Assembly (NCBI GenBank): GCA_048213135.1
Contig: PS015406.1
Span: 1 to 59,904, forward strand
Direction: 5' to 3'
Source of the DNA: Reclinomonas americana ATCC 50394
Lineage: Eukaryota
Length of the DNA stretch: 59,904 nt
Both the position numbers and the translations under genes were made by a program. The first letter of the stretch is position 1. Every line of letters starts with the position of its first letter. The notes beneath the pieces are model-generated. The model saw only the letters and a list, made by a program, of their open reading frames with translations. It searched no databases and had not been told where the DNA came from. This document shows, one piece after another, positions 8,958 through 48,420 of the stretch.

Positions 8958-11900
8958 TCACGTGTCGTACGAATCGCATTTCGGTGGCTCCTCCCCCTCC
9001 GCCGGTGGCGGCGGCGGCGATGGAGGCTTCTTCTGCTGGTCCTCGGGCTGGGTGATTTCGGGAATGCCCGCGCGCTTGCGCTCCTCCTTCAGTTCCTCCA
9101 CCATGCGCTCCAACGTGCATGGCGGGTAGTGTTCGAAAAAGAGACGCCACTGTAAGAGGGGAACGGGGTGTCAACAGGCGCTCTTTCCTTCCTTTTTCTC
9201 CTTGCCTTCACCCCCTTCTTCGTTCTCTGCGTTTGCACGTCTTCCTCCTTTCCTTCCTTTCTCTTTGCCTTCCCCCCCTTCTGTGCCCCCCTTCTTTGTT
9301 CTCTGCGTTTGCACGTCTTCCTCCTCTCCTTCCTTTCTCTTTGCCTTACCCCCCTTCTGTGTCCCCCCTTCTTTGTTCTCTGCACGTCGTCTCACTTGTG
9401 GACACGAAGACCGACGACACACTCACCAAGAACGCCTCGGTGCCAATGGGAAAATCGTCGCGGGCGGCGCGTAGGAACCGCTCGTCGAGCATCATGCGGC
9501 TGACCACCGACATGGAGTGGTACGACTTGCCGTCCATCACCACGTTGTAGGCGTGGCGCGTGATCACCTGCTCCACGAACTGGTTCTTTTGCAGGTCGCG
9601 TGGGGCCGTGTATGCGCCACTTGCTGTGACACAAAATGAGGGGCGAAGAGGGGGAAGAAGCGGAGCTTGATTGGCAAACCTTCGTCCAAAAAGTGCACTT
9701 GAATGGGAGCCATGGCGCGAGCCAGGGCTTGACGGTGGGCCATGGTGCCAGAGTTCGTCGCCACGAAGACCTTGGTGATGTTGAGCGAGGCGGGAAGGCG
9801 CTCCACGAACTCGCGGTACAAGGGGCCAGCGATTTCTGCGAGGGAGGGGGGAAAGGGGGGAGAAGGGGATGAGAGGGAAGGGAGAAAAGCAAAAGAATGG
9901 AATGAGAGGAAGAAAGCAAATGAAAGGGGATGAGAGGGAGGAAAGCAAAGAAAGGGGATGAGAGGGAATAAAGCGAAGGAAAGGGGATGAGAGGGAAGAA
10001 AGCAAAGGAAAATGGAAGAGAGGTAAGAAAGCAAAAGAAGGAGAATGAAAGGGAATGAGAGAGAGGAGGCAAAGAAAAATGGAATGCGAAGGAAGAAAGC
10101 AAAGGAAAGGGAATGTGAGGGAAGAAGGTAAAGAAAGGGAATGAGATGAAGGGGAATGAAAGCAAAAGAAAGGGGATGAGAGGGAAGAAAGCAAAGGAGA
10201 CGGAATTGAGGGAAGAAGGTAAAGGAAAAGGGAGGAGAGGTATGAAGGCAAAGGAAAGAGGATCAGAGGACAAAGGTAAAGGAAAGCTAATGAGAGAGAA
10301 GAAAGCAAAGGAAAGGGGATGAGAGGGAAGAAAGCAAGGAAAAAGGGGATGAGAGGAAAGAAAGCAAAGGAAAGAACGAGAAGGGGTGGAAAGACGCAAA
10401 GAGGTAGAGGATAACACAATTTTGACAGGTACTGCGCGTCAGAATTCACCGGGGAAAGGACTTGCGGTCATTCAACAAAGGAGAACCACGTATTCTCGGT
10501 ATGAACTCTTCTTCATCTCCAAGGTCACACAAAGAAAGTATGCACTCGGTAAGGATACGGAAGAGCGAAAGACTCACTCACACCTCTCTCTCTATCTGTC
10601 TTTCCTTTTCCTTTCTTCTCTCTCTCTCTTGCATATAACGAACAACTGCGACTATCCCTTCCCAAACAGCGACTCCCTCCTCCCTCATCACCGCACCTGG
10701 ATCACTGATCACCGCATGCTTCAGCCCTACCTCCTTCATCTCCGGATGCGAGCGGTCACCGCGCCGCCAGTGCACAAACACAAACTCGCCCGTGTGCAGA
10801 TCGAGACGGCGCATCACCTCGGCGGCCTACGATCAACAATAAGGAAAAAACTCACCCAAAAAAGAGACCCTTCTCCATCCACGCAACTCTCTCCTCGTAC
10901 TCCTTCCGCAACACAAAGTGCCTGCGCAGCTCAAAGTACGTCGTCGACCCCTGATACATGTAGATCTCACGCGTGACGGTGCCGCGCCCAAAATGCACCG
11001 TCAGATGCTTGTCGGCACCCTGCGGGTCGCGCACCCGAAAGTACTCATTGAGGCTCTGCTTCGTCACATACGAGGTGTGATCGGAGACATCGTGCGTCGC
11101 GCGCACCGCCGAGTGCGCCGGCAACGCCAGTTCGCGATCGACGCGAAACGTCAGCGTGCTCTCCGTGAGCGTGAAGCGACGTGGGACGCGATTGGGGAGC
11201 GGCGTGCGCAGCAGCCGGATGCGACCGCGAATGAGTCGGTGGTATTCCGGCAGTGGCATGTAGCGCCCGTTGACGTACTTGCGCAGCGGCTCTTCCTGCG
11301 TGGTGGATGAGAAGGGCTGCAGGCAAAGAGGCCTTGTGCAAACCAAAACACCTCAAAAATCTCGCTGAGTCGCATCGTGCGCTCGTCCAAATTCTCGTAC
11401 TCGTAGAAACCGAAAACGCGGGAGGGGTCCTCGTACGCGGTGCTGTTGCGGACTTCGGAGAGCAGCCACGGCTCGACGAATACGCGGCCGGTGATGCGTG
11501 CAGTGAGCGCCGCTTCGAAGACGGCTTGGAGGAGGGCGTTGAACTGCAAAAGAGAGGGAAGTGAGGGCGAATAGGGGGGAAGGGAGGAAGGGGGGCTCGT
11601 ACCAGCTCGAGCGATGGTGGTCGTTTGGAGACGGGCATTTCGACGAAGAGGAGGTAGCCTTCTTTTGCGTCGCCAGGGCCGCCGCCGATCACGGCCTATG
11701 AGGGGGGAAGGGAGGTGAGAGGATAGCAAGGGGAGGGTGAGGCAAAGGGAAGGGAAGGGGGGAGGCAAAGGGAAGGGGGGAGGCAAAGGGAAGGGGGGAG
11801 CAAGAGAAGAGGAAGCAAGGGTGGACGAAGAGGAAGACAGGAGAATGAGAGACAGAGACAGACAGAGACAGACAGACGGGCAGGTATGCAGACTGACAGA

Positions 11901-12265
11901 TAGGCAGAGAGACAGACTGACAAACAGACAGACAGACAGACAGACAGAGAGAGAGAGAAGAGTGATGGTTATAAACTGCAAGCAGGATGCTCAGCAGAAT
12001 ATCGAGACAGCACTGAAGATGGGAAAGGCGACCGCAAAACTCGCAACAGAAACAGGTGTCGCTGACAGAGTAGCAATGGAGAGAGGAGGCATGAATGTGC
12101 CAGGGGAGGATGCAGCGAGAATCCAACGTAAACACCGTGGTAAAGAGAGCAGCACCGCACCGTGGCAGCTCACTCAATGCGAGAAGGGGAGCGAGAGTGT
12201 GTGTGCGAGAGAGCGAGAGAGAGAGCGAGAGAGCAGGAGACAAGTGCTCAAAGTGAGACTAAACA

Positions 12266-12317
<52 letters not shown>

Positions 12318-12382
12318 GAACGANNNNNNNNNNNNNNNNNNNNNNNNNNNNNNNNNNNNNNNNNNNNNNNNNNNTCTCTCTC

Positions 12383-12416
<34 letters not shown>

Positions 12417-12708
12417 TCTCCCTTCCCTCCCCTCTCTCTCCCCCTCACACACTCACCAACTCCTCCGTAAGCACCACCACCTCTCTCCCCAACGCCCACA
12501 CCACCAACACCACCAACACCACCGTCAACGCCACCAACGGCAACACAGTCTCCGCAGGAGGCGCATACTGCTGCCTCGCAGCCATCCACGCGCGCACAGA
12601 CCGAGGACATTGTCGCACACAGACGCGCTTGAGACAGTCGAGGATGGAGGGGGAGGCGTGTGGGCGGTTGAAGGAGAAGGGCGAGGTGACGCGGTGGCCA
12701 GCGCGCAT
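8958..12708 (-). CDS. GDP-fucose protein O-fucosyltransferase-like glycosyltransferase (POFUT2/GT68-like), type II membrane
   Basis: N-terminal signal anchor (VLPLVALTVVLVVLVVWAL), RVFVEP, FVFVHWRRGD and KVFVATN motifs, VEQVI; last exon 8958-9150 joins in phase 0 at AFL|WRL. Start Met is 12708 or 12585. Confidence 0.7.
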
Positions 12709-14520
12709 TCTGTTGCAAAGAAGAGAAGTGAGAGGACAGGGAGGACAGCTGGTTTCTTGTACAATCAATTAATACACAGTATCGATATCTTCTTTTCTCT
12801 CTGTACCAGCACAATAAGACAGCAGGATGCAGCTGACATGAGAAGAGAGCAACGAGAAGACCAGTGTGTACAAGCACGGTGAATGCCCTCGCTGCGAGCT
12901 TCTCTCTCTTCTTTTCCCTCGCGCTGCGCTCACTTGCTCTCGTCACCCTCTCCTTCTCTTCTCTCCTTTCCATATCCAAGCAGGATGACTGCACTTGAGA
13001 GATAACTCTGCTTCTCTTTCTCTCTCTCTCCCCCTCTCATCGCCTTCTCCTTCTCTTCTCTCCCTTTTCCATATTGCTGCCTCGCAGCCATCCACGCGCG
13101 CGCAGACCGAGGACATTGTCGCACACAGACGCGCTTGAGACAATCGAGGATGGACGGGGAGGCATGTGGGCGGTTGAAGGGGAATGGAGAGGTGACACGG
13201 TGGCCAGCGCGCATGATTGCAAGGAGAAGAAGATACAAAGAGGACAGGGAGGACAGCTGGTTTCTCCCAAGTACATGATACCACAATATCGATATACCTC
13301 TGCTTTCTTTCCTCACTGTTTCTCTGTGCCTTCGCAATGAGATAGCAGGATGCAGCTGAATTGAGGAGAGAGCAACGAGAAGGCAAGCGTATACAAATAG
13401 GATGAATGCACTCGGGCTTCTCTCTCGATCGAGCTCTCGTTACCTTCTCCTTCGCTTCTCCCCTTTCCATATCCAAGCAGGATGATTGCACTCGGGAGAC
13501 AAATCTGCCTCTCTTTCTATCTTCTTCTCTTCCCCCTTTTCCATATTGCTGCCTCGCTGCCATCCACGCGTGCACAGAACGAGGACATTGTCGCACACAG
13601 ACACGCTTGAGACAGTCGAGAATGGACGGGAGGAGTGTGGGCGGTTGAAGGAGAATGGAGAGGTGACGCGGTGGCCAGCGCGCATGGTTGTAGTGAAGGG
13701 AGGACAAGGAGGACAGCTGGTTTCTCCCAAGTACTGATACACAATATCGATATACCTCTGCTTTCTTTCCTCACTGTTTCTCTGTGCCTCACAATGAGAC
13801 AGCAGGATGCAGCTGAAATGAGAAGAGAGCAACGAGAAGACAAGCGTATACAAACAGGACGAATGCACTCAGGCTTCCCTCCCTTTCTTTTCCCTCGAGC
13901 TCACTTGCTCTTGTACATGTCACCTTCTCCTTGTCTTCTCCCCCTTCCATATACCAGCAGGATGATTGCACTTGGGAGACAAATCTGCTTCTCTTTCTCT
14001 CTCTCTCTCTCTCCCTCTCATCGCCTTCTCCTTCTCTTCTCCCCCTTTCCATACTGCTGCCTCGCAGCCATCCACGCGCGCACAGACCGAGGACATTGTA
14101 GCACACAGACGCGCTTGAGACAGTCGAGAATGGACGGGGAGGCGTGCGGGCGGTTGAAGGAGAATGGAGAGGTGACGCGGTGGCCAGCGCGCATTCTGTT
14201 GCGAAGATACAAAGAGAGAGGACAGGGAGGACAGCTGGTTTCTTGCAAGAGTACAAAGCAATATCGATGTACCTCTCCTTTCTTCTCTGTGCCCCCACAA
14301 TGAGACAGCAGGTTGCAGCTGAATTGAGAAGAGAGCAATGAGAATACCAGCGTGTACAAGCACGATGAATGCCCTCGGGCTTCTCTCTCCCTTTCCTAAT
14401 TTCTTTTCCCTCGCGATCGAGCTCACTTGATCTCGTCACCTTCTCCTTCTCTTCTCCCCTTTCTATATACAAGCAGGATGACTGCACTTGTGAGACAACT
14501 CTGCTTCTCTCTTTCCCTCT
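12574..14520. repeat. Tandem array of four about 490-bp units containing the fucosyltransferase 5' end
   Basis: The motif cata(c/t)tgctgcctcgc recurs at about 12574, 13071, 13542 and 14050, each followed by a shared HRVTSPF..RPH..LKRVCVRQCPRS-encoding segment. Confidence 0.9.
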
Positions 14521-14612
14521 TCTCCCTCTCATATTCCCCTTCTCATTTCTGTTTTCTCTCCCAGCAGTTCTCATTTACTCGAGGCCTCCTCTNNNNNNNN
14601 NNNNNNNNNNNN

Positions 14613-28501: not shown

Positions 28502-31500
28502 CTATCGACGCCTCGGCGGGGTCGCCGCATACATCTCACTCTCGAAACCCTCCTCAAACTGCTTCTCGCTCTGCTCGCGCAGCTTGGTGATCTTGGCGCG
28601 ACCGAAACTTGGGATGTTGAAGGCCTCCTGTGGAGGGGGGTGAGAAGGGCAAAGGGATAAAGGAGAGAATAGAGGGAAGGGCGAAGGTAGGGTAGAGGGA
28701 AGGGCGAGAGGGAAGAGTGGAGGGAGAAGGGAGAGGAGAGCGAAGAGTGAGGGGAGAAGCGTAAAGGAGGAGAGAGAGAGAGAAAAGATAAGAGTGAGAG
28801 GGGCAAAGGGATACAGGAGAGAAGTGTGAAGGGAGAAGAGGGAGAAGGGAGAGGAAGAAGGAAGAGAGAAAAGAGAAGAGTGAAGGGAGAACACGGCGAA
28901 GAGCGAAGGGCGAGGAGAGAAGAGAGAATGAGTGAAGGAGAAAAGAGAGAAGTGAGCAGCGTTGAGTGACGGGAGAGGAGAAGGGAAACAAGGGCTAACG
29001 GAAGGGAGAGAAGGGCATAGGGAGGAAGAGAGATGAGTAAAGAGAGAATAAGTGATGGGAGAAAAGAAGAGAGAACAGAGAGTAGAGAGATGGATTGAAG
29101 AAGGGGAGAGAAGAGAGGGAAGAGAGAAGGAGAAGAGAGTGTGAAGGAGAAAGAGAGAGAGAATGGAAGGGAAAGCAAAAGGGAGCAGAGAGAAGAGAGA
29201 AAGAGGGAGAAGAGAGGAAGAGGAGGAGAGAAGGAAATATGCGTGAAGGGAGAAAAGAGAATAAGTGAGGAAAGAAGAGAGATGAGTGTAGGGAGAGGAG
29301 AGAAACAGTGAAAAGTGAAGAATGAAGGAGAAGAGAGACATGAGCGAAGGCGAAGAGAGAAGAGAAGGAAGAGTGAGGTGAGAAGAGAGCAGAGAGGGAC
29401 GTTGTGAAGCGAGAAAAGAGAGAAGCGAGAAGAGAGAGACGAGTGACGGGTGAACAGGGCGAAGAGAGGAGAGACGAGAGGGATGAGAGAGATGGTAGAG
29501 TAAAGGTGAAGTGAAGGGAGGGGACAAAGTGAGACGGAGATTGAGGCAGAAGAAAAAACAGAGAATGAAAGAGAGAATGAGATGAGTGAGAAACAAGAGA
29601 GACGAGCGAAGGAAGAAGACAGAGAGATGTGAAAGGGAAGAGAAATGAGTGAAGGTAGACGAGGGGGAAGAGAGATGAGAAGACAGTGGGGATAGAGAGA
29701 TGAGAGAAGCGAGACGGGAGGCGAGACAAGGGTGAAGAGAGAAGAGAGATTGGAGAGAGCAGAGAACGGGCAACGGGAGAACAGAGAACGGGCAAAGGGA
29801 GAAGAGAAAGAGTAGAGGAAGTAGAGAGAAAAGACAAGGAGTAACGGAGAAAACTGAGAAGAAAGAGAATATGACAAGACGAGAGAGAAAAGAAGCGAGA
29901 AGTGATGCGCGAAAAAGGAATGAGTGAACGAAGAGTGAACAGAAGAGAAGAGAGAAGAAAGATATGAATGAAGAGAGAAGAGCAAAGGGAGGAGAGAGTG
30001 AAAGGAGAAGAATGCAGGGAGAAAAGAGAAGAGTGAAGAGAGTGTGAGTGAAAGAAGAGTGAACAGAAAACAGAAGAGAAGAAAGTGATGAATGAAGAGA
30101 GAAGAGCAAAGGGAGGGGACAGACAAGAGAAAAAGAAGGGAAGTGGACAGACAAAAATGTGAGTGAAGAGAAGAGAGAAGAGAGGAGAATGCTTCCTTCC
30201 CTGTCCACCCCCACTTCCTCTTTCCCTTCCCCTTTCCTCCCCCTCCCCTTCCCTTCCCCTGTCTACCCCTTCCCCTTTCTGCGCACCTGCATCAACTCAT
30301 CCGCATCATACGCCGCCGCCGCCGTCTCCGACAAAATGCGCATAATCTGCCCCTGATGCGCCGCCCCGAGCAACTCCTTCTCCGCGCGCATCAGAATCGC
30401 CAGGCACACGCGCANNNNNNNNNNNNNNNNNNNNNNNNNNNNNNNNNNNNNNNNNNNNNNNNNNNNNNNNNNNNNNNNNNNNNNNNNNNNNNNNNNNNNN
30501 NNNNNNNNNNNNNNNNNNNNNNNNNNNNNNNNNNNNNNNNNNNNNNNNNNNNNNNNNNNNNNNNNNNNNNNNNNNNNNNNNNNNNNNNNNNNNNNNNNNN
30601 NNNNNNNNNNNNNNNNNNNNNNNNNNNNNNNNNNNNNNNNNNNNNNNNNNNNNNNNNNNNNNNNNNNNNNNNNNNNNNNNNNNNNNNNNNNNNNNNNNNN
30701 NNNNNNNNNNNNNNNNNNNNNNNNNNNNNNNNNNNNNNNNNNNNNNNNNNNNNNNNNNNNNNNNNNNNNNNNNNNNNNNNNNNNNNNNNNNNNNNNNNNN
30801 NNNNNNNNNNNNNNNNNNNNNNNNNNNNNNNNNNNNNNNNNNNNNNNNNNNNNNNNNNNNNNNNNNNNNNNNNNNNNNNNNNNNNNNNNNNNNNNNNNNN
30901 NNNNNNNNNNNNNNNNNNNNNNNNNNNNNNNNNNNNNNNNNNNNNNNNNNNNNNNNNNNNNNNNNNNNCAATCACCTTCCAGCCCTCGCACATCACGGCG
31001 TCCCAGATACGCGCCGCCGTGTCGTGCGGCACCGTGCCGATGAAGCAGGTGAGGAACCACTGGGTGGCGAAGAATGCCGGACTCGCCTCCATGGTGACCA
31101 GCACGTCAAAGAGGCGGCGCATGCGGTTCTTGATCCATTTTTCGAGCATGAGGAATTCGACTTTGAGGCCGCGGAGTTTGTCGGCGAACATGTCCGAGGG
31201 CATCACATCTGGCAGAGGGAAAGGGATGGGGAAAGGGAGAGGGAAAGGGGGTGAGAAAGGGGAAGCAGGTGGGAAGGGGAAGAGATAATGACAGTCGCAA
31301 CTCTCAGCCAAGTTCTTAAGCGTCCAAAATGCGTCCTCTTCTTCTTGATGCAGCAGGAGGAAGGCAGCCAAGAAATTCAGGCCTAAAGCGGAGTGCGGGT
31401 GTGAGAAATGGAGCAGGACAAGAGGGACAACCGCAGAGAAAGTGGACCTTGGCAGTATCCAATGTAGGTGGCTCGCGAAAATGCCACCAACACGTTCTTC

Positions 31501-34426
31501 AACTTGGCAATGGTGAGCTCGTCCTGGAACTCGGGGTGATCGGGGAAGCTGCGATTCAGGTCCTGCGGGATGCGATTGCAGGTGAGCAAACAAGAGAGAG
31601 GCGGTAGGCGGTCTTCTTCGCGAATGACCTTGTCAATGGCCTCCAGGTCGTCAGGGGCGGCGTGCTCGTCGTCGCATAGATTGCTGTAGCGGACGGAGCT
31701 GATGTCGCGGAGTTCGCGTGCGCGGGAGATGATGTACCACACCTGCAGGGAAGGAAGAGGGGAGTGTAAGGGGAAGGGAATGGGGGAAGGGTAAGGGGGA
31801 AGGGAAGGGGAGGGAANNNNNNNNNNNNNNNNNNNNNNNNNNNNNNNNNNNNNNNNNNNNNNNNNNNNNNNNNNNNNNNNNNNNNNNNNNNNNNNNNNNN
31901 NNNNNNNNNNNNNNNNNNNNNNNNNNNNNNNNNNNNNNNNNNNNNNNNNNNNNNNNNNNNNNNNNNNNNNNNNNNNNNNNNNNNNNNNNNNNNNNNNNNN
32001 NNNNNNNNNNNNNNCACACACACACACACACACACGACGTGCATCCGGACTCCTTCTCCTCACGACCCTTCCCCCACGTACCTTGCCCCTCAGTGGTCGC
32101 GGCACACCCAACCGACACGCCTTCTTCAACTTGCTGGAGATCTTTGTCACCGGCCGCGACGCATACTCGGCCAAAAACGTGACGAACAACGCATTCTGCT
32201 CTCCCAGGCGCGCATTCCAATTCACCATGTTGGTGTAGTACGCCTGCGGGAACACTCTCAGCAATCACACACCTCACAAAAGAGTGAATACAGTACTGTG
32301 CTCACCGCAACAAATTCTGGCGGTACGTCAAAGCCACACACGTCGCGCACGGTTGACGAGCTGCCCGAGGCCGCACTACGACGGAGAAGGAGATTGAGCG
32401 AATGGCGAGGAGAGTGGAGTGGATTGGAGAGATGAAGCGACAATAGAGGAGAAGCGATGATGCATGTAACACAAACACCGAGAATGCAGGACGCGTCGCC
32501 AACGCGGACGCCAGTGGAGAGGCAATAATGCATGCAACAGAAAGAAACGCTGCACGAAAGCAGGACGGGTCGTACAGCACGGACAACACTGGCAAAGCGA
32601 CGCTACAAAGGACGCGTCGCTCTACAAGGACAACGGTGGACAAGAGATGATACACGACGGCAATGGACTACACGAACGCATAGAAAGCAGAACGCGTCAC
32701 CCTACACGGACGCACACGCCCCAAACACACGCACATGCATCAACCCACCATCCCATTCACACACACTCCCAATCTCTAACTGGCACACACAATGCTTCAC
32801 AAAAATGAGAGTGACTGAGGGCGAGACATCACGCACAGAGGATTGAAGCTCACGAACGAAACAGGGAGGAAACACTCACACATATCAATGGGAGAATTCG
32901 GTCGAACAGATGCAGAGAGGGGAGCAAAAGCAACAACTGCGCCACACTAACTGCCACACAAAACGCCTTCGCCCATCTTCCCCCCTTCCCCCTTCCCCTT
33001 TCTCCCCCTTTCCCTTTCCGACAAACCTCGGCGCCGCTACCGCGGCCAGCTGACGCGGCGGTCCGGTCCGCACGGGGGCCTCGGCCACACTCACCGCCGA
33101 CATGAATGTATTGGAGGCCGCCACCGACTCCACCGTCGGCTGATGCCGATGGCGCGCGTGCGCCGCCGCAGACGCCGCCGACGACTCACTGCCGCTGCCA
33201 CTCACCGGCTCCGACTCGTGATGCTGATGGCGACTGCTGTGACGATGTCCGCCCTCCTCCGCATCAACGCGATCGTGATGGCCGGTGGCGTGGAACGATC
33301 GCTCGTGCTCGGTGACGGCGCGGCGAATGGCGCGTGTCTCGGCGTCGACCGTGGCCGCTGCGCCGTGCGTGACCGTCACGGGCTCGTGGTGGAGGATTTG
33401 GCTGACGCTGCTCTCCGCTGCGTGGTGGTCATCGTGGGAAGGGTGGTGATCGTGGGTGTGGATGCCGTTGGTGGCGGGGGTGCTGCAGGAGGGGAGAGGG
33501 AGGTGAGACAGGGAAAGGGGGGGAGAGGGGAGGTGAGACAGGGAAAGGGGGGGAGAGGGGAGGTGAGACAGGGAAAGGGGAGGAGAGGGAAGGAGAGGGG
33601 AGGAGAGGGAGAAGAGGAGAGGAGAGGGAGAGAGAGGAGGAGAGGAGAGGGGAGGAGAGGAGAGGAGAGGAGAGGAGANNNNNNNNNNNNNNNNNNNNNN
33701 NNNNNNNNNNNNNNNNNNNNNNNNNNNNNNNNNNNNNNNNNNNNNNNNNNNNNNNNNNNNNNNNNNNNNNNNNNNNNNNNNNNNNNNNNNNNNNNNNNNN
33801 NNNNNNNNNNNNNNNNNNNNNNNNNNNNNNNNNNNNNNNNNNNNNNNNNNNNNNNNNNNNNNNNNNNNNNNNNNNNNNNNNNNNNNNNNNNNNAGAGGAG
33901 AGGGGAGGAGAGAACAGGAGAGAAAGGATGAGGGGAGGGAAAGGGCGAACGAGAGGGAGAAAGAGATGGGAGGAAAGGATAAGGATAGGAGAAGGAGAGG
34001 GCATCAGAGGGAAGGCTGGGGGTGGAGAGCGAACGAGAGGCGAGGAGAGGGAGGGACAGGCAAGGAGAGGCAAGGAATGGAAAGCGATATGAGAGACGGG
34101 CAAGAGGAGAGGGGGAAAGGAGAGGAGAAAGGAGAGGGAACGAAAGGGGAGGGGAGGGAAGGATAGGCAAGAATGAGTAGCAAGAGAGAGAAAAGAGAGA
34201 GAATGCTTCTGAACGCTCGCACGCTCACTGTGCATGTGTGTTTCTGCGTGTGTATAAATGCATTGTCAATCAATCGCCCTCAGTTGTCACGAGAGACTTC
34301 TCACTCATCGCGCGCTCAGCACACAAGCAGAGAGAGAGAGAGGGAGTGTGTGTGAGAGAGAGAGAGAGAGAGTGAGAGAGAGAGTGAGAGGGAGTGAGAG
34401 AAAAACGAAATGCAATGCTTAAAAAC

Positions 34427-34458
<32 letters not shown>

Positions 34459-34481
34459 TGTGTGTGTGTGAGTATGCTTTC

Positions 34482-34527
<46 letters not shown>

Positions 34528-34999
34528 CACACAACAGCGCACAGAGCAAACGCGAAAGAGCAAGAGATGTCCAACTCACTCACTCACTCACACACAACAC
34601 ACACACGCACACACACACAGACACACAGATGCACAGAGGAGTGTAAGAGAGTGCATGAGAGTGAGAGTGAGAGTGTGAGAGAAAGAAAAACGTTGCATTC
34701 TCTTGTCACATAGTCACAGAGAAACAGAGAAAGAGAGAGAGAGAGAGAGAGAGAGTGAGTGAGTGAGAGAAGAGTGTGTGCGTGTGTGTACAAGAAAGTA
34801 ACACACTGAAAGAGAAAGAAAGCGATCACTGCAGAAAAACCTATACACAAAAACAACTTCGCTTTCTCTCACTCACACAGTCTCTCATTTGCTCTCTCTC
34901 TCTCACACACTCACTCTCTCACACACACGCGACTCACCTCACATGCTCATCTGCAGCAACAACTGCAGGTGTCTCTGTCGCGCCACTCTCTGCGCTCAT
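28502..34999 (-). CDS. TBC-domain Rab GTPase-activating protein
   Basis: LKKACRLGVPRPLRGKVW, IDKDLNRSFP (IxxDxxR finger), GYCQGLNFLAAFLL (YxQ finger), EEDAFW, FATQWFLTCF, RIWD; exon 1 MSAESG... at 34999 joins in phase 2. Confidence 0.92.
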
Positions 35000-35109
35000 T
35001 CTCTCTCTCTCTTTTACACACAGACACACGCACGCGCGCAAACAAGCAAATAGAGAGAGAAAGAGAGAGAAAGAGAGGGAGGCACTGTCGACTTGCGCGC
35101 GCGCTCAAG

Positions 35110-36130
35110 TCGACGTCGAGGGGTGAGCAGGACACGCTTTTTTGACGGCCTTGCTTCTTTGTTTGCACTTATCGCGCATGTGTATGAGCAGTGGTTGTCT
35201 CACTTGCATCCACTGCTTCGGCGCGCGTGCATGATCACGCACAGTGGCAGACGTCGACATCATGGATGTTCGCAGGACACGCTTTTTTGACGGCCTTGTT
35301 TCTTTGTTTGCAGTCACTGCGCGTGTGTATGAGCAGTGGGTGTCTCTGTTGCATTCACTGCATCGGCGCATGTGCATGTTCATGCAGAGTGGCAGACGTC
35401 GACATCATGGATGTGCGCAGGACACGCTTTTTTGACGGCCTTGTTTCTTTGTTTGCAGTCACTGCGCGTGTGTATGAGCAGTGGGTGTCTCTGTTGCATT
35501 CACTGCATCGGTGTACGCACAGTCGCAGACGTCGACATCGTGGATGTGCACAGGACACGCTTTTTTGACGGCCTTGCTTGTTTGTTTGCAGTCACTGCGC
35601 ATGCGTGTGAACAGTGGCTAGCTCTACTGCATCCGCTGCATCGGCGTATGTGCATATCCACGCACTGTGGTAGACGTCGATAACTCGACTGTGCACAGGA
35701 CACGCGCTTTTCTCTCGCTGCAGTCCCGCCTTCACGCTGTACACATACGATCCGTATACTGCGTTTCTGTTGCACCCTGTGCTCCACTTTTTGCGCTCAT
35801 CTGCAAACAGAGAGAGGCACAAGACTATTTTTCATCTGCAGGACACGCTTTTTCTCTCGTTACAGCATCGCTCTCACGCTATTCACTATTCTCTCACGTG
35901 CAACTGTCTCCACTGTACACGTACCGCCACTTGTTGCGCTCATCTGCAAACGGAGAAAGGCAACAGCCTTGTTTTCGCTGCAGGACACGCTTGTTTGAAG
36001 TCGCTCTCACTCTCTCTTTTACGCCCAGTCAACTCATGCACTCAGCGTATCATCGACAGATGCATCCGAACGCACTCCACTCCCTCACTTTCCCTCAACG
36101 TCAGTGACCATTCTGCGCAGGACATTTTCA
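35110..36130. repeat. Tandem array of about 145-bp units (7-8 copies)
   Basis: The anchor caggacac(gc) occurs at 35128, 35273, 35418, 35551, 35696, 35839, 35981 and, degenerate, at 36118; the first four units are closely similar. Confidence 0.9.
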
Positions 36131-36160
36131 ATCTCTCACTTAACTCTTTGTTCTCAGTCA

Positions 36161-39075
36161 ATGTGGCGAAGCGGTTTGCGGTGTTGTCTTGCACAAGCAC
36201 GACTTGTGCACACTGGTGCAAGTGCAACTGTTGCTGCAGCAGTTGAGTTGTGATCTGGATGCGATTTCTTGCATCTCTCTCTGTCTCTCACTCTGTCTCT
36301 CTCACGTGCATCTCTTGCATTGTTGTGTTTATGCAGTGACTTAGTTGCCTCTTTGTTTGTTATCTTCCTTGTTCTTCCTCTCTCATTGCAATCACTTGCA
36401 TCATTCTCTCAGAGATGCATCACTGCCTCCTTTCTCTCTTCTCTCTCTAACATGCATCCTTGTCGTGTTTATGCTGCACTTGATTGCTTCTTGGTTTCTT
36501 CTATCCTCTCTGTCTCTCACACTCTCGATCCTCTCTCCGTGCATCCTTCTCCCAGAGAACTTGCATTACTGCCTCCTTAGAGAGATACTCGGTCAGTGTT
36601 CTTCTTTTCCCTTCACATCTCCCTCTCACCACTCCTCTCTTATCCACAGCCACCACTCTCCACCACCGCCTCATTCCCACCGATTGTCCTCTCCGGCATC
36701 CAACCCACTGGCGCCCTGCATCTCGGCAACTACCTCGGCGCCGTGCGCAATGTTGCGTTCCATCACCCTCCGCGTGTCTCACCGCTGTCGTCACTGGCTC
36801 ATTGGCGAGGTGCAGTGGGGTGAACTGCAGCGACGAAGCGATGCTCCGTTCGACCGCGCGCGACATCTGTTCATGATTGCCGACTTGCATGCGCTCACTG
36901 GCACGCAGGTTTGTCGCGCTCTCGCTCAGTCACGTCCGTCTCGTCTCATGGCGTTTCTTTCTCGTTGTGGACGGCAAGTTCATATTCGTTCTCTGTGATT
37001 GTGCCCCCTTCACCGACCCTCACGACTGCACATTTCCCGCGGTGTCTTGCCTCTCCGTTCTGGTGATGTATCAAGCCGTTCCTCTCGTTTACCGCGTTCT
37101 ATCCCCCTTCAACCTTGCCTCTCTTTCTCTCCCGCCTTGCCTTGCCTCATTTCGGTCATCTCGTGGCGCATGCTCTTCTAGCTTTCTTCGCTGTCCTTTT
37201 TGTTGATCACATTCTCTCCTTCTTCAACCATACTTGTCCTTGTCTTTCCTGGTGTCCATTCATTTGCGCTGATATACCTCTCTCCATCCCTTGCATGGCC
37301 TCTTTTTTCTCTTCCCCCTCTCCTTCTCCTCTCACATCTCCCTTCTCTCTCATCCCTCCCTCCCCCCTCCACAGGTCATGCTCGGCTCGGAACTCCAAGA
37401 GGCCTCCCTGCACATGGCAGCCTCACTGGTCGCCTCCGGAGTGGACCCACGACGCGCCACAATCTTCCGCCAATCGCAGGTGCCCGGGCACGCCGAGCTC
37501 ATGTGGTACCTGTCGTGCGTGGCCTCGATGGGAGCCCTCAACCGCATGCACCAGTTCAAGCAAAAGAGTGCCGACTCGCGGCGGCAGGTCGAGCTGGGCC
37601 TGTACTCGTATCCCGTGTTGATGGCGGCCGATATTTTGTTGTATCGGTGCGGGAAGGGGGAGGGTACAGGGGGAGGGGGGAAGGGGGGTAAAGGGGGGAA
37701 GGGCGGTAAAGGAGGGGGAGGGAGAGAGACATGAGAGGGACAGGAGCAAGGAGAGAGAAAGAGACAGTTGAGATATTGTCTACGGAGGGGTGAGAAAATG
37801 ACTAAAGTTGAGGGATAGGTATATGAGTTAGAGAGAGAGGGAGAGAGGAAAGAGAAAGTTGAGGTGCTGTCGACGGACGAGTGAGAGAAAGAACGAGGGA
37901 AGCAAGGAGAGAGACAGATGAGATTTTGTCTTGGGGCGTGCGAGATTGGCTGAAGTGGCGGGGCAGGAGTGCGAGTGTGTGTGTGAGAGAGGGAGAGAGG
38001 AAAGAGAGTGTTGAGGTGCTGTTGACGGACGAGTGAGAGAAAGAATGAGGGAGGTAAGGAGAGAGACAGTTGAGATGTTGTCTTGGGGAAGAGAGAATGG
38101 CTGAAGTGGCGGGACAGGAGTGCGAGCGAGCGAGAGACAGACGAGGTTTTTGCTGTGTTGACTTGTATGTGTGCTTGGACGTCCACGGTGAACTCGTTTT
38201 CCTCCTTCGTGTCGTTCTTTCTTCGTCACAGTGAGTAGTATTCATTCTGTTCATGTCGCCCGCTTCGGTGAGAAATCGCGCCTGCACGGCCGTGATTGTC
38301 AGTTCTGTTTTGCTGCTGAGTTCCACCACGCGTCCTTGTCGCCGCATAGAACCTTGCTGTACATCATTTGCTTGTCTTATTCTGTTGCAGTTCTTGTCCT
38401 TCTTTCATTGTCATTTGCCGATGCCGGTCATACTTCTTGTCGTCCCTCTGTTTATTCGATTCACCTCTCGACTTTTCACTCACTGTCTTACTCGCCGCAG
38501 AGGAACACACGTGCCCGTGGGCGACGACCAAAAGCAGCATCTCGAACTGGCTCGCGACCTTGTCATTGCTTTCCACGCGCGCTACGGCCCTGATATCTTC
38601 CCGTTCCCGGAACCCGTATTCAGTTGCGCGATGTTGTCAAACTGTTGGTTGCAGTGCTTCTCTCTCCTTCAACCGACCTGCATGGTGAAGCTTACATCGC
38701 ACGGCTTTTGTTGTTGGTCTCTTTCTCTCTGTATGCATCATTCTCTCTTTCTCTGTGCATCTCTCTCTTCATTACTCCTCTCATGTTCTCTCTCTGTCTC
38801 TTTCTCTCTCTCTGTTACTCTCTGTGTATCATTCTGTCTCTTCCTGTCGCTCCCTTCCTACGCCCCTCTCCCATCTCTCTGTGCATCTTTTTCTATCTCC
38901 CTCTCCGCGCATCTCTCTCTTTCTGCGTATCTTTCACTACACCTTTCTTTCTCTGTGCATCGTTCTCTCATTCTCAGTGCATCTTTCTCCGTCTTTCTGT
39001 TTCACTGCTCCTCTCTTTTTTCGATCACACTTCGTGTCTCTTTCATATTCTCTCTTACTTCTGCCACTGCTCCTC

Positions 39076-39149
<74 letters not shown>

Positions 39150-39517
39150 ATGTGTGTGTGTGCATAATTCTTTTCTTTCTGTGCATCCATCTCTCCGTGC
39201 ATCTTCCTCTGTCACTGATCCTTTCTTGGTCAAACTCTCTGCGTATCACTCTTACTCTCTCTCGCCCACTGTGCATCTCTCTCTTTCATTGCTCCTCTCT
39301 TGTTCTCAATCACTCTCCGTATCTTTTCCACGCTGTCTCTGTCTCTCTGCATCTTTCTCATTCACTGCTCCTCTCTTGTTCTCATTTCCTCTCTCTCACT
39401 CTGCGTGCATCATTCTCTCTTTCTCTCGTTGCATCATTCTCTCTCTGTCTCTCTTACTCTTTGCGTTCTTCTTTCAGTGTATCTCTTTTGCTCTCTCTAA
39501 CTCTGCCTCTGTCTTCG

Positions 39518-39557
<40 letters not shown>

Positions 39558-39590
39558 TCTCGTCTCTCTTCTCTCGTCTCTCTTCTCTCT

Positions 39591-39653
<63 letters not shown>

Positions 39654-40378
39654 TCTGTCTGTCACCATTCATTTCTCTTTTTGTTACCCCCATTGCTCTC
39701 CTTCTTCTTCTTCTTCTCTCTCTCTCTCTGTCTGTCTGTCTGTCTCTCTCTTTCCCTTCTCGCCCCTTTCTTCCCCTCCCTTCCCCCTTCTCCCCCTCCC
39801 CCATTCCCTCACTCCCCCTCCCCCTTCCCCTCCCTTCGCCTCTTCCCCCTTCCCCCTTCCCCGCTTCCCTCCCCCCCCCTCTCCCCCTTCCCTCACTTCC
39901 CCCTTCCCCCTCCCCTCAAGCGTCCACCGCCCGCGTCATGAGCCTCCGCGACGGCAAGGTGAAAATGAGCAAATCGGACCCGGTCGAGGCCAGCCGCATC
40001 AACCTGAACGACACCGCCGACGACATGGCGCACAAGATACGGCGCGCCAAGACCGATTCGCTCCCCGCGCTCACCTACGATCGCGAAACGCGCCCCGAGG
40101 TGGCCAATCTGCTGGAGATCCACGCGGCGCTGTCGGGCCGCACCGTGGCGCAGCTGTGCTCGGAGACGAAAGACATGGCGCACTTGAAGCGGGAGGTGAT
40201 CGAATTGCTGCAGCAGCACGTGGTGCCGTTGGGGAGGCGCACGGCGGAGTTGCTGAACGAGGGGCGCGGGGAGCTGGTGGCGATTTTGCGGAGGGGGGAG
40301 GAGGAGGCGCGGGAGGAGTCGTTGAGGACGTTGCGGGTGGTGCGCGAGCGAGTGGGTGTGGGGGAGGTGGGGGTGTGA
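36161..40378 (+). CDS. WARS2: Tryptophanyl-tRNA synthetase, mitochondrial/bacterial type
   Basis: [21 protein letters not shown] (HIGH), [41 protein letters not shown]; putative transit-peptide exon [15 protein letters not shown]... Confidence 0.95.
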
Positions 40379-40701
40379 GAGGAGGTGCAGTGTAGAAATG
40401 GAGAAATAGAGAAAACGCCGGCCACCTCTTTTCATCAATCCTGTTATCTCATTGTCCAATGTTGAAGACAGCGGTTGTGTACATGTACTTCCCTTCCTTA
40501 CGCGACGCCCTTAGCAGACCCATTCCTGCCAGCACCAGCAGCTCATGAGCAGTCACCATTTGTCAGGTGTCACATGGAGATTTATTTCGATATTTGTGTA
40601 ACACTGTATTCTTACGTGCCTGTACATGTCATTGGCGTCGGAGATGAACACTGCTATTGTCGGTGTTGTTGTTGTTGTTGTTGTTGATTCAGATCAAAGT
40701 A

Positions 40702-42120
40702 TCAGCAGCCACGAGTCCGTTGCCCGTCGCGGTCGTAAAAGAACGGCATGCTGACTCGTGTAGCCGTGTCTGACACTCGCAAAACGCGGTGGCATACTGC
40801 CTGAAAGTAGCCGTTGGAGGCGTCCTCCAGCGCACTGCCAGTGTTGACCAAAATCGCTCCGGGAATGGGAGCCGGTGCAGCCAGCCACGCTGGTGGGATG
40901 TACTCGGCATCGTGGCGCCGACTTGCCAGCACTTCCAATCCACTAATGTTGTCTTGCAGAAGCAGAGTCAGCCAAGAAGCGTCGCGATGGCGCGCTGTCG
41001 TTACCACCCTCTCGCCAGCCTCCCCAAGTGGACCAGGCGGGTAGACAAGTGCGCGAAGTCCCAAGTACCGTCCGCGAGAGAATTCTTGACGCCACCCTGG
41101 CATCGAGCCTTCCGTGACAGCCTGAGAAAAAGCCAGCGCGTGCAGCAATGTGTCCGACAAGGATTCCATCGCACAGAAAGAGTTCATCACCATGCGTCGA
41201 TGACGATCTGTCTCATCCGGAAAATACGCGCATTCGCAGTGCCTGATCGTTTCGTCTCGCTTCTCCATGAAAGAGAGGTGCTCCTTGCAGTGAGCGTCGT
41301 CGGCGCCAAGCCCGATCGGTGGACGCGATCCAGCGCGCAACTTCAGGGTCTGAAAAAGGTTGGCCGGCACGTCATGCGCGACGACAAAGAACATGCCAAT
41401 ATCAGTGGTAGCACGACCAATCTGACACACGGTCGAAAACAGCTCGCGCATATCTGCGGTGTCGCTGCGGCAAAGTTCGTCGACACTGCTTGCTGTCGCC
41501 AGCAGACGAGCGTGTGTTCGCAGCAGCGTCACGTCAACGGTCGGGATCTCAGCAAGGCGAACACGCCACCGCGTGCTGTTGGGCGGCGGCACACCGCCAG
41601 CGTCGTCGCGGTCCGACAGGAGGGTGCACACTGTTTGTTCGTCGTCGGATAGAGTCAAAGTGGCAATGGTGGGCCGGTGGCAGTGCTCGGAAGACACGAA
41701 CAAGTGAAATCCGTCGCCATCGTCGGCACGAGTCCAGCGCCAGCGCTCCCATCCTCCGGGCGGGCACGCGTCTCGGAATCGAACCTTGCACAGATGGCGT
41801 TCGTCGTCCATGCCCACAGGGGACACGAAGCGAGCTGCAGCGTTTTCCAGGGAGAATTCGATGTCGTCCGGCGCAGAACCGTCACTTGCCCGGCCTAGGC
41901 CGCTGACACCATGCCGCAGACGGAAGACCGAGCGCGCATCGTCTGCTGGCTGTTCTCGACACACAGACAAGCGAAGGCGAGCAACGGCATCTCCGCCTCG
42001 GGCTTCAGCGGCAAATGGGTCGTCGTCGATGGCGAGGAACAGGGGAGTGCGACCGTCGGTTCGCGACAAGGTGTAGATGAACACAGCGGCACCATTCGGA
42101 ATGGAGCACGGGGTGTCCAT
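40702..42120 (-). CDS. 2-oxoglutarate/Fe(II) dioxygenase (IPNS-like) with an N-terminal beta-rich extension, intronless
   Basis: IGMFFVVAHDV, HRD (HxD), LTLLLQDNISGLEV, ILVNTGSALE..SNG, CHRV, RVSMPFF (RxS); alternative start at 42171. Confidence 0.88.
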   Translation of the reverse strand: MDTPCSIPNGAAVFIYTLSRTDGRTPLFLAIDDDPFAAEARGGDAVARLRLSVCREQPADDARSVFRLRHGVSGLGRASDGSAPDDIEFSLENAAARFVSPVGMDDERHLCKVRFRDACPPGGWERWRWTRADDGDGFHLFVSSEHCHRPTIATLTLSDDEQTVCTLLSDRDDAGGVPPPNSTRWRVRLAEIPTVDVTLLRTHARLLATASSVDELCRSDTADMRELFSTVCQIGRATTDIGMFFVVAHDVPANLFQTLKLRAGSRPPIGLGADDAHCKEHLSFMEKRDETIRHCECAYFPDETDRHRRMVMNSFCAMESLSDTLLHALAFSQAVTEGSMPGWRQEFSRGRYLGLRALVYPPGPLGEAGERVVTTARHRDASWLTLLLQDNISGLEVLASRRHDAEYIPPAWLAAPAPIPGAILVNTGSALEDASNGYFQAVCHRVLRVSDTATRVSMPFFYDRDGQRTRGC

Positions 42121-42813
42121 TTTTTCGTCACGGGGTGTGCTCTGCTCCAAGGAATGCAAAAAATACAACACGCCGGAGAAGACAGGTTCAGTTGGATTCT
42201 GTTGCCGGATTCATGTTGTCTGGCGTAGCGTGACCAGTAAATCTGTGTTGGCGCATCGGACGATAAGCTGTACATGTGTCAACAGACGACAAGTTTTTAC
42301 GCACTCTGCCGTGTCCAGGGGGCTGAGAGTTCGTGCATTGTCCGCGCGTGAAAGTCGACTGCAGAGGGTGCAACTGCAGTCAGTACATCCTTCAAAAAAA
42401 TCAACAACTGATGGCGCAAAAATGGCAAAGTTGCCACTAATTGCAAGTTCCACAATCTGGAGTGTTGCAGTAGTCAGCTGCCGGGAACAACATCTGCACT
42501 GATATCAACCGCAGCAGCCAGAGCGAGACTCACCGCTCGCTCCAGAGAGCCGACGGCGGAGCGCGTGACAAAACGATGTTGACAACTCCGCGTAATGTAC
42601 AAGCGACTTCGGTAGACAACGAAGTCTTTGTCACTGTGTAGGCACTTAGAACTTGCTGTCTTGTAGCCAACTATCCTGTCGCCCTGAACACAGTTCAGAC
42701 ACCCACAGTTGCACTGCTGTACATTGCCTCACTGTGCCCATTAACTGACACAGACGGTATGCACAACTAGCTCACCTTCTCACCGTTCCCCTTTTTTCTC
42801 TCTCTCTCTGCCA

Positions 42814-43260
42814 CTACCAACACCAACTCCTGTACAACAGCGCATTCGCATCCTCCCGCAAAAAGCATCGCAGCACCATCAGCGGCAGCGGCTCCGGTGC
42901 ATCGGCATCCAATCCATCCATCTCACGCATCGCACCCAACGCGGCATCCACTCCCGCCACCTCCTGCTCCAGACACCAGCTGCGACTCCACGGTCCTGGA
43001 CACAAGACAACACGATTGAATTGCATACCCGCCTCTCACACTTGCAGTTCCCCTCTCTCTCTTGATGGCAAGGCTCTGATAAGAGCAGTAGCATGGGAAA
43101 CAACAAGCACCTGCAGCCCACACTCGAATTGCACCATCCCACGACACCGACACGATGCGACCGTCGCGTAACGCATCGGCTCCACTCGCCCAACCCTCAT
43201 GTCCACGAAAGACAGCAACACACTGGCGCCTGCCGACGTGCCACACACGCACCGTCATGT
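42814..43260 (-). CDS. WD40 protein, C-terminal exons with ...LPLMVLRCF motif
   Basis: DMTVRVWHV...GHEGW...[12 protein letters not shown], then the final exon ending at stop 42814. Confidence 0.8.
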
Positions 43261-43532
43261 CTGCTCGCAAACTATCATTTGTCAGCAGACCCAGCACCAA
43301 GGAGTTACACAGAAGGGCAAAGCGAGGTGACAGGCACGGGCAGCGTGAGCAGAGGTAGGGACGGGGAAGAGTGAGTGGACCAGGGAGTGGGCAAGTGATG
43401 TTGCAGAGAAGGGCTAAGAGAGGAGGACGATGGAGCACCACTAAGAACTATGACAACGAACACCACCACCATAGCAACAACAACAACAACAACAACCACA
43501 ACAACAACACCACCACCACCAACAACAACACC

Positions 43533-43564
<32 letters not shown>

Positions 43565-44355
43565 NNNNNNNNNNNNNNNNNNNNNNNNNNNNNNNNNNNN
43601 NNNNNNNNNNNNNNNNNNNNNNNNNNNNNNNNNNNNNNNNNNNNNNNNNNNNNNNNNNNNNNNNNNNNNNNNNNNNNNNNNNNNNNNNNNNNNNNNNNNN
43701 NNNNNNNNNNNNNNNNNNNNNNNNNNNNNNNNNNNNNNNNNNNNNNNNNNNNNNNNNNNNNNNNNNNNNNNNNNNNNNNNNNNNNNNNNNNNNNNNNNNN
43801 NNNNNNNNNNNNNNNNNNNNNNNNNNNNNNNNNNNNNNNNNNNNNNNNNNNNNNNNNNNNNNNNNNNNNNNNNNNNNNNNNNNNNNNNNNNNNNNNNNNN
43901 NNNNNNNNNNNNNNNNNNNNNNNNNNNNNNNNTCGGTCTTCCCTCTCTCGCTCATGGATGCTCTTGCTCCATCCAACCCTCCATTTCATCAACCATCTCT
44001 TTTCTCTCCTTCTCTCTCGTTCTCAGTCGCCCGTCCATTAGTGCACGTCACTCTTGCGCCATGGTCGCGATTATCCCGTGGCCTCCTTCATTCTCATGCA
44101 CACTTCTCCACTGCACTTGCCACCTCGTGTCTCTCCTTCTCTCTCGATCGCCCTGCTCCCTGCTCTCTTCGCGCATTCTACTCTCGCGGAATGAATGGGC
44201 TCTCTCTCTCTCTCTCTCCTCTTTCTCTCGCTTGCCCTGCACCTGATCTTTGCCTCTCTCGCGCACTCTCCCTTGTCTTCCTCCTCCCTGTCCGCTTTCC
44301 CTTCCCCTCCTTCCCCTCTCACTCTCCCTTGTCCTCCTTATCCCCTTCCTCGCAG

Positions 44356-45073
44356 CTTGTGGCCGCGGGCGGCAATTGCGGCCGCCACTCCCCCACCTGT
44401 CTCCGCATCTTTGGCATGTTCGAGAGCGCCACGCAAGACGGGCGGCAGCTGGCTGCGCCGACCGATTTCGCGGAAGATCTAGGCAGCGTGGCGTTCTCGC
44501 CGACCGACTGGCAGGTGTTGCTGAGCGGCGGCCACGCCACTGAGCCCTCGGTGATTCGCTGGGACTTGTCGGAGGTTTGGGAGACTGGACGTGCGCGAGT
44601 CGTGTGGCGCAACGACGAGGATCACGCTGACGCGGTGGTGGCCATGGCCGTCACTCGCGACAACCAATACGTGGTCACCGGCAGCTACGACTACTCCATT
44701 CGACTGCTGCTCCTGTCGACGGGTGAAGTGGTACGCGAATTCGACACATCGGACGTCAACATTGAGGGCGTCAATGCGCTGGCGCTGATAGCCGGCGACT
44801 CAATCGCCATCAGTGGATCAAATGACGGCACGACCATTTGGTGGCGCGTGGCGACCGGGAAACCCGACAGAGAGGGGGAGTACTTTCCATTCAGCAACGC
44901 CATCGCTGTGTCGCCGGATGAGAGTCTGGTGGCAACGGGCGGCAACAATGGTTCGCTGCGCTTGTACGACAGCGCAACTCGGACGCAGGTGTGCAAATTG
45001 GGAGGTCACACGGACGAGATTGCGTCGCTTCATTTTACCGACGACGGGAGTCACCTGATCAGTGCCTCGCACG
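44356..45073 (+). CDS. WD40 protein, internal exon (likely the same gene as 42814-43260; contig appears flipped)
   Basis: WD40 repeats end ISASH-G|GTTGCG; a phase-1 join to AC ATG ACG at 43260 gives ISASHDMTVRVW. Confidence 0.8.
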
Positions 45074-45385
45074 GTTGCGTTGTGAGTGTTGTTGTTGTTG
45101 TTGTAGTCGAAGGGACTGCGTGTCGGATCAATGAGATGTGTGGGATGAGTGAGAGAGAGATAGAGGGGGGAGAGGGAGAGAGAGAGAGAGAGGAGACTGT
45201 GCTAAAGGCTGGGACGAGGCGCGCGGGAAAGTGTGTGAGAATGTGCGCATCCAGCTGAGTGATTGAGATGAGGAATGAGTGAGAGAGAGACCTCTTCTTG
45301 TTCTTCTTCTTCTTCTTCTTCATCCTTCATTTTGACCGTCTTCTTGTTCTTGTTCTTTTTCGTCTTCATTTCGATAGTCATGTTA

Positions 45386-45416
<31 letters not shown>

Positions 45417-48382: not shown

Positions 48383-48420
48383 NNNNNNNNNNNNNNNNNN
48401 NNNNNNNNNNNACGTACGAC

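Follow-up and report, generated by a model that had tools for sequence, protein, structure and literature searches.

We analyzed a scaffold of 59,904 bases from the eukaryote Reclinomonas americana ATCC 50394 (contig PS015406.1; 54% G+C, 13 N gaps), called the window below and always meant at its full length, for an unusual class of 5′ splice site (donor) in which the intron begins with GTTGCG or, in one candidate, GTTGAG. The motif occurs in an FN3-repeat gene (about 17.9-25.8 kb, plus strand), a TBC/RabGAP gene (30969-32400, minus strand), a tryptophanyl-tRNA synthetase gene (TrpRS; 36098-40378, plus strand), a WD40 gene whose parts lie on both strands (42926-45502) and an unnamed gene on the minus strand. 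Many of the introns in the window are short (55-95 nt) and they are frequently CT-rich, while some are long. An initial annotation of this DNA had listed ten GTTGCG donors, at 10887 and 31301 on the minus strand (hexamers spanning 10882-10887 and 31296-31301) and at 18419, 18612, 19173, 21379, 23452, 36752, 38623 and 45074 on the plus strand, together with one GTTGAG at 36242. All eleven motifs are present at these positions, in five genes by our recount and not in six as had been stated. Judged from the gene models set out below, GTTGCG(T) appears to be a recurrent, real-looking GT-AG donor class, and its place as a routine second class beside the ordinary donors is supported.

Placement of the Donor Junctions

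For each listed donor, all GT(GC)-AG pairs that keep the reading frame open were enumerated, and the spliced products were scored, where possible, against evidence blind to the motif. Five of the listed sites came out as well supported (36752, 31301, 21379, 18612 and 45074), and five as plausible with in-frame alternatives remaining (19173, 38623, 18419, 23452 and 10887).

In the TrpRS gene, a 64-nt intron (36752-36815) runs from the donor aat/GTTGCGTT (here and below a slash marks the exon boundary) to the acceptor GTGCAG/tgg and creates the junction GAVRN/WGELQ. Scored on a profile of 107 full-length bacterial TrpRS sequences, this pair came first among 26 in-frame GT/GC-AG pairs (58.1 bits, with the runner-up at 55.3); a GTGCGC donor 9 nt upstream reached 48.8 bits and a GC donor 3 nt downstream 51.9 bits, so that the junction GAVRN/W is indeed fixed by conserved protein, as first proposed. 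The enzyme belongs to the bacterial (mitochondrial) type; its first exon resembles a transit peptide, and its nearest relatives, at 55-65% identity, are alphaproteobacterial. Among the best 120 matches there was no eukaryotic TrpRS orthologue.

The TBC/RabGAP gene carries a 93-nt intron on the minus strand (31209-31301) with the donor aga/GTTGCGAC and a CCAG acceptor, giving the junction KNLAE-N-VMPSD. When the read-through open reading frame (ORF) was aligned to the solved TBC domains of TBC1D1, TBC1D4 and RabGAP1, splicing at 31301 left 16, 11 and 7 residues between the aligned blocks, identical to all three structures (3/3), while a GTCATT donor 10 nt downstream would add three residues and a GC donor one. 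The intron preceding this one is fixed by the contiguous motif YCQG/LNF and starts aag/GTCCACTT; the next intron upstream presumably starts aag/GTACGTGG, as judged from a sequence motif. A TBC intron starting GTCATT, which may be intron or coding sequence, was left out of all counts. The gene extends over three contigs separated by N gaps, 31301 being on a small one, and the Pfam matches first obtained for ORFs did not include it, owing to exons that are short or carry read-through introns.

Five of the listed sites fall in the FN3-repeat gene; of the seven introns behind the earlier claim that five of seven in one gene belong to the class, these five are the ones covered here. At 21379, a 78-nt phase 1 intron (21379-21456; cca/GTTGCGCA) is the sole in-frame, stop-free GT-AG pair within the search ranges (1/1). 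The 78-nt intron at 18612-18689 starts gct/GTTGCGTC and gives the junction QYTIA/AYAVNAYGEG; 18612 is one of two in-frame GT donors, and splicing there restores a Y, an N at +8 and a G at +11, a spacing also seen in YVVNVRAVNSYG and YFIDVRGINGIG, which belong to two further repeats of this protein. Three further sites in this gene are plausible. A 75-nt intron (19173-19247; act/GTTGCGTC) produces the junction GLWST/TVSVTT, and an in-frame stop at 19194 requires an intron in this region; the product lies within one residue of the ends of other FN3 repeats, and the donor, which had been presented as fixed by protein, is one of seven GT donors among 22 pairs. The 70-nt intron at 18419-18488 (act/GTTGCGTC) is 86% pyrimidine, with CTACTCAC as a branch-like motif and a CAG acceptor, and its donor is the one of three in-frame GT donors located at the switch into CT-rich sequence. 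Finally, a 230-nt phase 1 intron (23452-23681; tca/GTTGCGTG) has a purine-rich start, and its donor competes with six other GT donors in a set of 12 in-frame pairs. Lengths of 70-78 nt are shared by four of the five introns; CAG closes every one of them, in most cases with a CTCAC- or CTCAT-like motif upstream of that end. A search of the PDB with an FN3 exon returned nothing useful.

A more complicated situation is found in the WD40 gene. Its exon at 44350-45073 on the plus strand ends in GHTDEIASLHFTDDGSHLISASH plus G (LISASH plus one G) and is followed by the 5′ part of a phase 1 intron (45074-45502; acg/GTTGCGTT) that meets (GTT)n repeats and an N gap. The expected continuation D-MTVRVWH is found only on the minus strand, in an exon that reads downwards from about 43258-43260 with a matching acceptor phase; the 3′ part of the intron there (43261-43564, minus strand) has (GTT)n at the gap edge, CTGCTGAC as a branch-like motif and the acceptor GAGCAG/AC ATG. 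Pfam finds WD40 matches in both flanking exons, and (GTT)n repeats in matching orientation border the N gaps (43565-43932 and 45503-45690) on both pieces. These data are most simply read as a probable inversion of the contig 43933-45502 within the scaffold. With this contig inverted, 45074 is the only donor in phase, a GTGAGT 8 nt downstream (45082) being out of frame. The repeat SASH-D-MTVRVW, which the initial annotation had taken to fix this donor, is completed across 45074, and requires the inversion.

Two listed GTTGCG sites remain. In the TrpRS gene, a phase 1 intron of 1298 nt (38623-39920) connects the donor tca/GTTGCGCG with the acceptor CTCAAG/cgt. Here 38623 is the top GT donor (155.0 bits), and an in-frame GC donor at 38626 scores higher (159.3 bits). 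The DQxxHxE-to-KMSKS spacing would be 46 with the former and 47 with the latter; among 105 homologues it is 48 in 87, 47 in 14 and 46 in 2, so that both readings are allowed. In the unnamed gene, a 61-nt minus-strand intron (10827-10887; aga/GTTGCGTG) with a TAG acceptor yields EYEER/AAEVMRRL; 10887 is one of three in-frame GT donors, in 12 pairs when GC is counted, and splicing at a GTGAGT 32 nt downstream (10856) would break the frame and shorten the intron to 29 nt. A Pfam search of the two exons flanking 10887 gave no support. The GTTGAGT at 36242, which had been presented as less certain, starts a possible first TrpRS intron (36242-36649; gca/GTTGAGTT) after the transit-peptide-like exon; the motif is there, and only two of 41 in-frame pairs use it, in an N-terminus that is not conserved. 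The remaining two TrpRS introns start cag/GTTTGTCG, by a margin of only 1.5 bits, and tcg/GTGCGGGA.

It could be argued that many of these sites are not true donors, in that gene models chosen by frame alone settled on GTTGCG where another GT or GC donor, or no intron, is correct. Several features point this way: in-frame alternatives remain at five of the ten GTTGCG sites, the GC donor outscores 38623, the frame stays open when the introns at 18612 and 31301 are retained, 45074 depends on an assembly inversion, and ordinary GTGAGT or GTGAGC hexamers lie 6-32 nt downstream of 32311, 45074 and 10887. Against this, five junctions are set by conserved protein or are the sole solution, and the downstream GTGAGT hexamers at 45082 and 10856 are out of frame. 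Moreover, GTTGCG makes up 39 of the 6,859 GT hexamers scored (0.57%), and chance would not be expected to make motif-blind criteria settle on it repeatedly. We regard misplacement of many of the donors as very unlikely. Reading the same introns as GC-AG (GTT/GCG) was also rejected, being worse at 36752 (51.9 versus 58.1 bits), at 31301 (one residue extra) and at 45074 (the D of the WD40 repeat lost), with 19173 favoring neither reading decisively.

Comparison With Ordinary Donors

As a reference, we used introns placed by homology in other genes of the window. The PFK2/FBPase2 gene was scored on a profile of 45 homologues from an exhaustive search of 1.84 billion representatives, among which there is no relative above 58% identity. 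The profile fixes seven introns, starting tcg/GTGCGTGC, ttg/GTTAGGAA, gag/GTATGATC, tcg/GTGAGTGG, aag/GTTTGCTT, gag/GCGAGTCT and cag/GTGCGTTC; GTTGCG is absent from these seven donors. The gag/GCGAGTCT intron, within 57878-58749, is of the GC-AG type and scores 20 bits above the next donor on the profile. A TLDc gene and a zinc-finger gene form a unit that is present in three copies at 45691-53378 (two on the minus strand, one on the plus strand), 78-88% identical including the introns. These recent TLDc paralogues have two introns in common, one of which starts tgg/GTGCGTGA in each copy.

The initial annotation had described the ordinary donors as GTGCGT or GTGAGT. GTGCGT is indeed the commonest, serving PFK2 introns 1 and 7 and the TLDc intron, yet the description is too narrow, because homology also places GTTTGT, GTTTGC, GTTAGG, GTATGA, GTCCAC and GCGAGT. 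Among eleven other donors tabulated by hand, G occupies +5 in 10, T occupies +6 in six, G occupies +3 in six and C occupies +4 in five. In most eukaryotes the +3 base of the donor is a purine; T or C is frequent at this position among the homology-fixed donors here (GTTTGT, GTTAGG, GTTTGC and GTCCAC, at 36909, 56634, 57645 and 31447 on the minus strand), and all four of these have G at the exon end and three have G at +5.

The number of GTTGCG copies in the window is unremarkable: the two strands together hold 39, compared with a mean of 36.78 (sd 6.65) after shuffling, and 43 of 100 shuffles reach 39. Since there is no overall excess, the claim depends on gene structure, that is, on where the copies sit, and the expectation that the motif would be more frequent than chance is borne out only by its concentration at exon ends. 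With paralogues taken once, the well-supported GTTGCG donors account for five of 18 placed introns, against an arithmetical expectation of about 0.1, and an inclusive count gives 11 of 24; overall, the class makes up roughly 28-46% of the placed introns.

Two further properties set the class apart, both as first described. Ten of the eleven listed sites follow an exon that ends in A or T, the exception being 45074, which follows G, while G precedes 11 of the 12 other donors placed (Fisher p = 1.1e-4 against 1/11; the later-found aag/GTACGTGG is left out of this test). The second property is that the motif equals GTGCGT with one additional T, so that the G at +5 in 10 of the 11 tabulated donors appears at +6, where it is invariant by definition. 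The following position behaves similarly: T at +7 is found in seven of ten listed sites versus seven of 27 other copies (p = 0.023, with the candidates at 52518 and 59147 set aside). Displacement of both G and T is what a one-base shift of all positions downstream of GU would produce, and deleting one U after GU converts GTTGCGT into GTGCGT, a good local donor.

The 3′ ends, in contrast to the donors, are alike. By inspection, CTCAC, CTCAT, CTGAC or CTCAA occurs 15-35 nt ahead of the acceptor in both the 10 introns of the class and 11 others, and both groups end with a branch-like YTNAY motif, a pyrimidine tract and YAG. U12-type introns, whose consensus consists of an RTATCCTT donor and a TCCTTAAC branch site, resemble the class in combining a rigid donor motif without exon-end preference with a position alongside ordinary introns. 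They differ in the donor and branch sequences themselves: neither RTATCCTT nor TCCTTAAC was found in the 10 class introns inspected, whose 3′ ends are those of the other introns, and a U12-type identity was rejected. Similar 3′ ends and the lack of U12-type signals argue that these are U2-type introns handled by the same type of spliceosome. An introner-like mobile family was likewise rejected, given that the class introns are dissimilar, by inspection, past their first 7-8 bases.

Possible Modes of Recognition

We tentatively propose, with somewhat less than even confidence and from sequence comparison, that W/GTTGCG(T) sites form a genuine and routinely used class of U2-type 5′ splice site, which would most probably be read by small nuclear RNA (snRNA) pairing offset by one nucleotide. 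We infer every step of this mechanism that involves U1 or U6. Two geometries could produce such an offset: U1 might be shifted by one position, with the intron G+1 replacing the exonic −1 G, or one U of +2/+3 might be bulged out; under either option the cut would stay at the GU. The absent −1 G fits the shift, because G+1 would pair in the slot usually taken by the −1 G, and fits the bulge less well, since a bulged duplex would still gain from a −1 G.

Both registers have precedents. In the parts of the study by Tan et al. (2016; PMC4856993) considered here, shifted and +2/+3-bulge registers are described as experimentally proven for rare human sites, with all noncanonical registers together amounting to at most about 1.5% of human sites; for the +2/+3 bulge, its Table 3 gives 68 predicted human sites, 54 after curation, of 201,541. 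Judged by the same parts of that study, which cites Roca and Krainer (2009) as its reference 10, the human shifted-register sites resemble the class in being GT-AG with poor complementarity in the normal register, in having the conserved intron bases one position downstream and in the non-G exon end. They differ in being a rare exception and in having A-rich cores that pair with standard U1 (about −6.5 kcal/mol for the model oligonucleotide), whereas GUUGCGU is predicted not to pair. The human bulge sites (Roca et al., 2012, reference 16 there) likewise show the consensus with an extra U after GU, although they are rare, and a bulge should favor the −1 G that is present here in 1 of 11 sites. 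No relevant work on GTTGCG or GUUGCG in introns or splicing came up among the papers listed, and the literature found on U1 registers concerned human sites only, a scope beyond which species surveys in supplements may lie.

Several observations weigh against this proposal, beyond the in-frame alternatives at half of the GTTGCG sites and the lead of 4.3 bits for the GC donor at 38623, the only site where the GC-AG reading is better. The first concerns the exon end. Unlisted GTTGCG copies follow G in only 3 of 29 cases, from which the listed sites do not differ (p = 1.0); the non-G exon end thus points to a class without selection for a −1 G and not to selection against G. The exon bases ahead of the class, mostly C and then T or A, are also unlike the −3/−2 bases of ordinary donors that a pure shift would lead one to expect, albeit in small numbers. 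The second concerns energy. In ViennaRNA calculations with the standard U1 5′ end, the class sites gave +0.5 to −2.8 kcal/mol in any register compared with −4.1 to −10.5 for other donors (means of −1.0 for ten GTTGCG contexts and −6.4 for eleven other donors), and duplexes this poor in every register make an offset with an ordinary U1 energetically unconvincing. Standard U1 would be expected, on these pairing models, to make GTTGAG or GTTAAG dominate the class rather than GTTGCG, but the better-pairing GTTGAG (−5.7) is the rarer form, with one uncertain site against ten. Third, U1 complementarity is nearly absent from some homology-fixed donors (aag/GTCCAC, and tct/GTGTTT and tct/GTTGTA in TLDc paralogues), which suggests that the species may rely little on U1 pairing. 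Lastly, the class is clumped by gene, with five sites in the FN3 gene and none among the seven PFK2 introns.

The energies could be explained differently if the class were real but recognized in the usual register by a changed snRNA. This could be a second U1 or one with a lineage-specific 5′ end, complementary to (G)UUGCGU or to UGCGU, perhaps along with a corresponding change in U6. The weak binding of the class by standard U1 favors this. In model calculations, which are not evidence in themselves, hypothetical U1 variants would bind the class well: replacing two central U's by G and C gave −7.4 and −8.7 for the two donor classes, and full complementarity to GUUGCGU gave −11.6 for the class and −5.1 for the other donors. 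A rigid GTTGCG(T) without exon preference also resembles a fixed donor read by a dedicated snRNA, as U11 does in the minor spliceosome, and GCG-type donors outnumber GAG-type donors in both classes. However, the U1 5′ end is nearly invariant across eukaryotes, and the ordinary donors GTGAGT, GTATGA, GTTAGG and GCGAGT are predicted to pair well with standard U1. An Rfam search matched no family in the window, and thus no U1 or U6 gene within its 59,904 bases. On balance we consider an altered snRNA in the normal register unlikely.

A related scenario is that two routine donor grammars coexist, one like G/GTGCGT and one W/GTTGCGT, by way of a changed U1 or a second U1, and possibly U6, reading UGCGU; we regard this as possible but doubtful. 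Should this scenario be correct, a one-nucleotide offset that is rare in humans would here be a major mode of 5′ splice-site recognition. Textbooks treat donor recognition by the unvarying U1 5′ end as a constant. If about a third of introns use a fixed, offset-type donor, the organism would represent a natural experiment on the coupling of U1, U6 and the cleavage site, and one would have to ask directly whether its lineage has acquired an altered U1 5′ end. On the practical side, gene finders trained on standard donors would mis-annotate many of its genes.

Alternatively, the class may be real while TGCG(T) is not an snRNA site, with little beyond GU needed for donor recognition in this species of short introns and the motif reflecting a protein-bound element, a shared origin of the introns or a mutational bias. 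The homology-fixed donors with weak U1 pairing would fit this explanation (aag/GTCCACTT, and tct/GTGTTTTG and tct/GTTGTATG in the paralogues), as would the clumping in the FN3 gene, the GC(A)CT that its first three sites have in common ahead of the motif, and the continuation of four GTTGCG copies as GTTGCGTGG followed by a G/A-rich run. It is harder to reconcile with the occurrence of the class in at least five unrelated genes and with the end of the likeness between introns, by inspection, after 7-8 bases. That the motif corresponds exactly to GTGCGT with an added T, the conserved G and T being displaced by one, is also an unlikely coincidence and is what offset pairing predicts; we hold a motif unrelated to snRNA to be distinctly unlikely, and retain offset pairing as the preferred, if tentative, reading.

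Further Candidate Sites and Features of the Window

Additional candidates for the class were seen outside the list. An unlisted TLDc intron of 62 nt (52518-52579, plus strand) has the GTTGCG-class donor tct/GTTGCGAT and the junction VLLRS/LLARL; in the two paralogues the intron starts with the weakly pairing donors given above, while the flanking exon sequence is conserved in the three copies. In the PFK2/FBPase2 gene, a candidate donor aat/GTTGCGTG (59147-59152, plus strand) lies 12 nt past the last homology-supported residue, in a tail that is not conserved and next to an N gap. The TBC gene contains a candidate composite site, ttt/GTTGCG/GTGAGCAC (32306-32311, minus strand), with both donors in frame. 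The four copies that continue as GTTGCGTGG are at 1669, 10887 (minus strand), 23452 and 59147; two of these are listed donors (10887 and 23452) and two are candidates (1669 and 59147), and the resemblance may represent an extended motif or chance.

Some attempts to extend the list from sequence properties were abandoned. A scan of all GT hexamers for donor-likeness by composition scored 4 of 39 for GTTGCG (p = 0.019) and was too noisy, CT-rich hexamers being dominant. An ORF-based scan for short introns was dropped at 9,056 candidate pairs in 224 loci, a number that arises because random ORFs run long in GC-rich DNA. An intron candidate in a NACHT gene, at 4924 (cag/GTTTGCTT), was unconfirmed, as its downstream exon has no NACHT match.

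Other features of the window were noted in passing. A 2OG oxygenase has no relative above about 34% identity. About 60 nt past the TLDc stop, the three paralogous copies share gac/GTTGCGTGTTTGG, a further candidate for the class, followed by (CT)n (47038 and 48493 on the minus strand, 50216 on the plus strand), which may mark an intron in the untranslated region. In the same region, a 121-nt stretch (48435-48555) recurs with 100% identity at 50154-50274; both adjoin gaps, and the identity may be an assembly artefact. Very long, low-complexity CT-rich tracts occupy 9349-10467 and 38700-39900 and produce spurious long ORFs with many S, L, P and F residues, and the 1.3-kb TrpRS intron contains long (CT)n-like runs.

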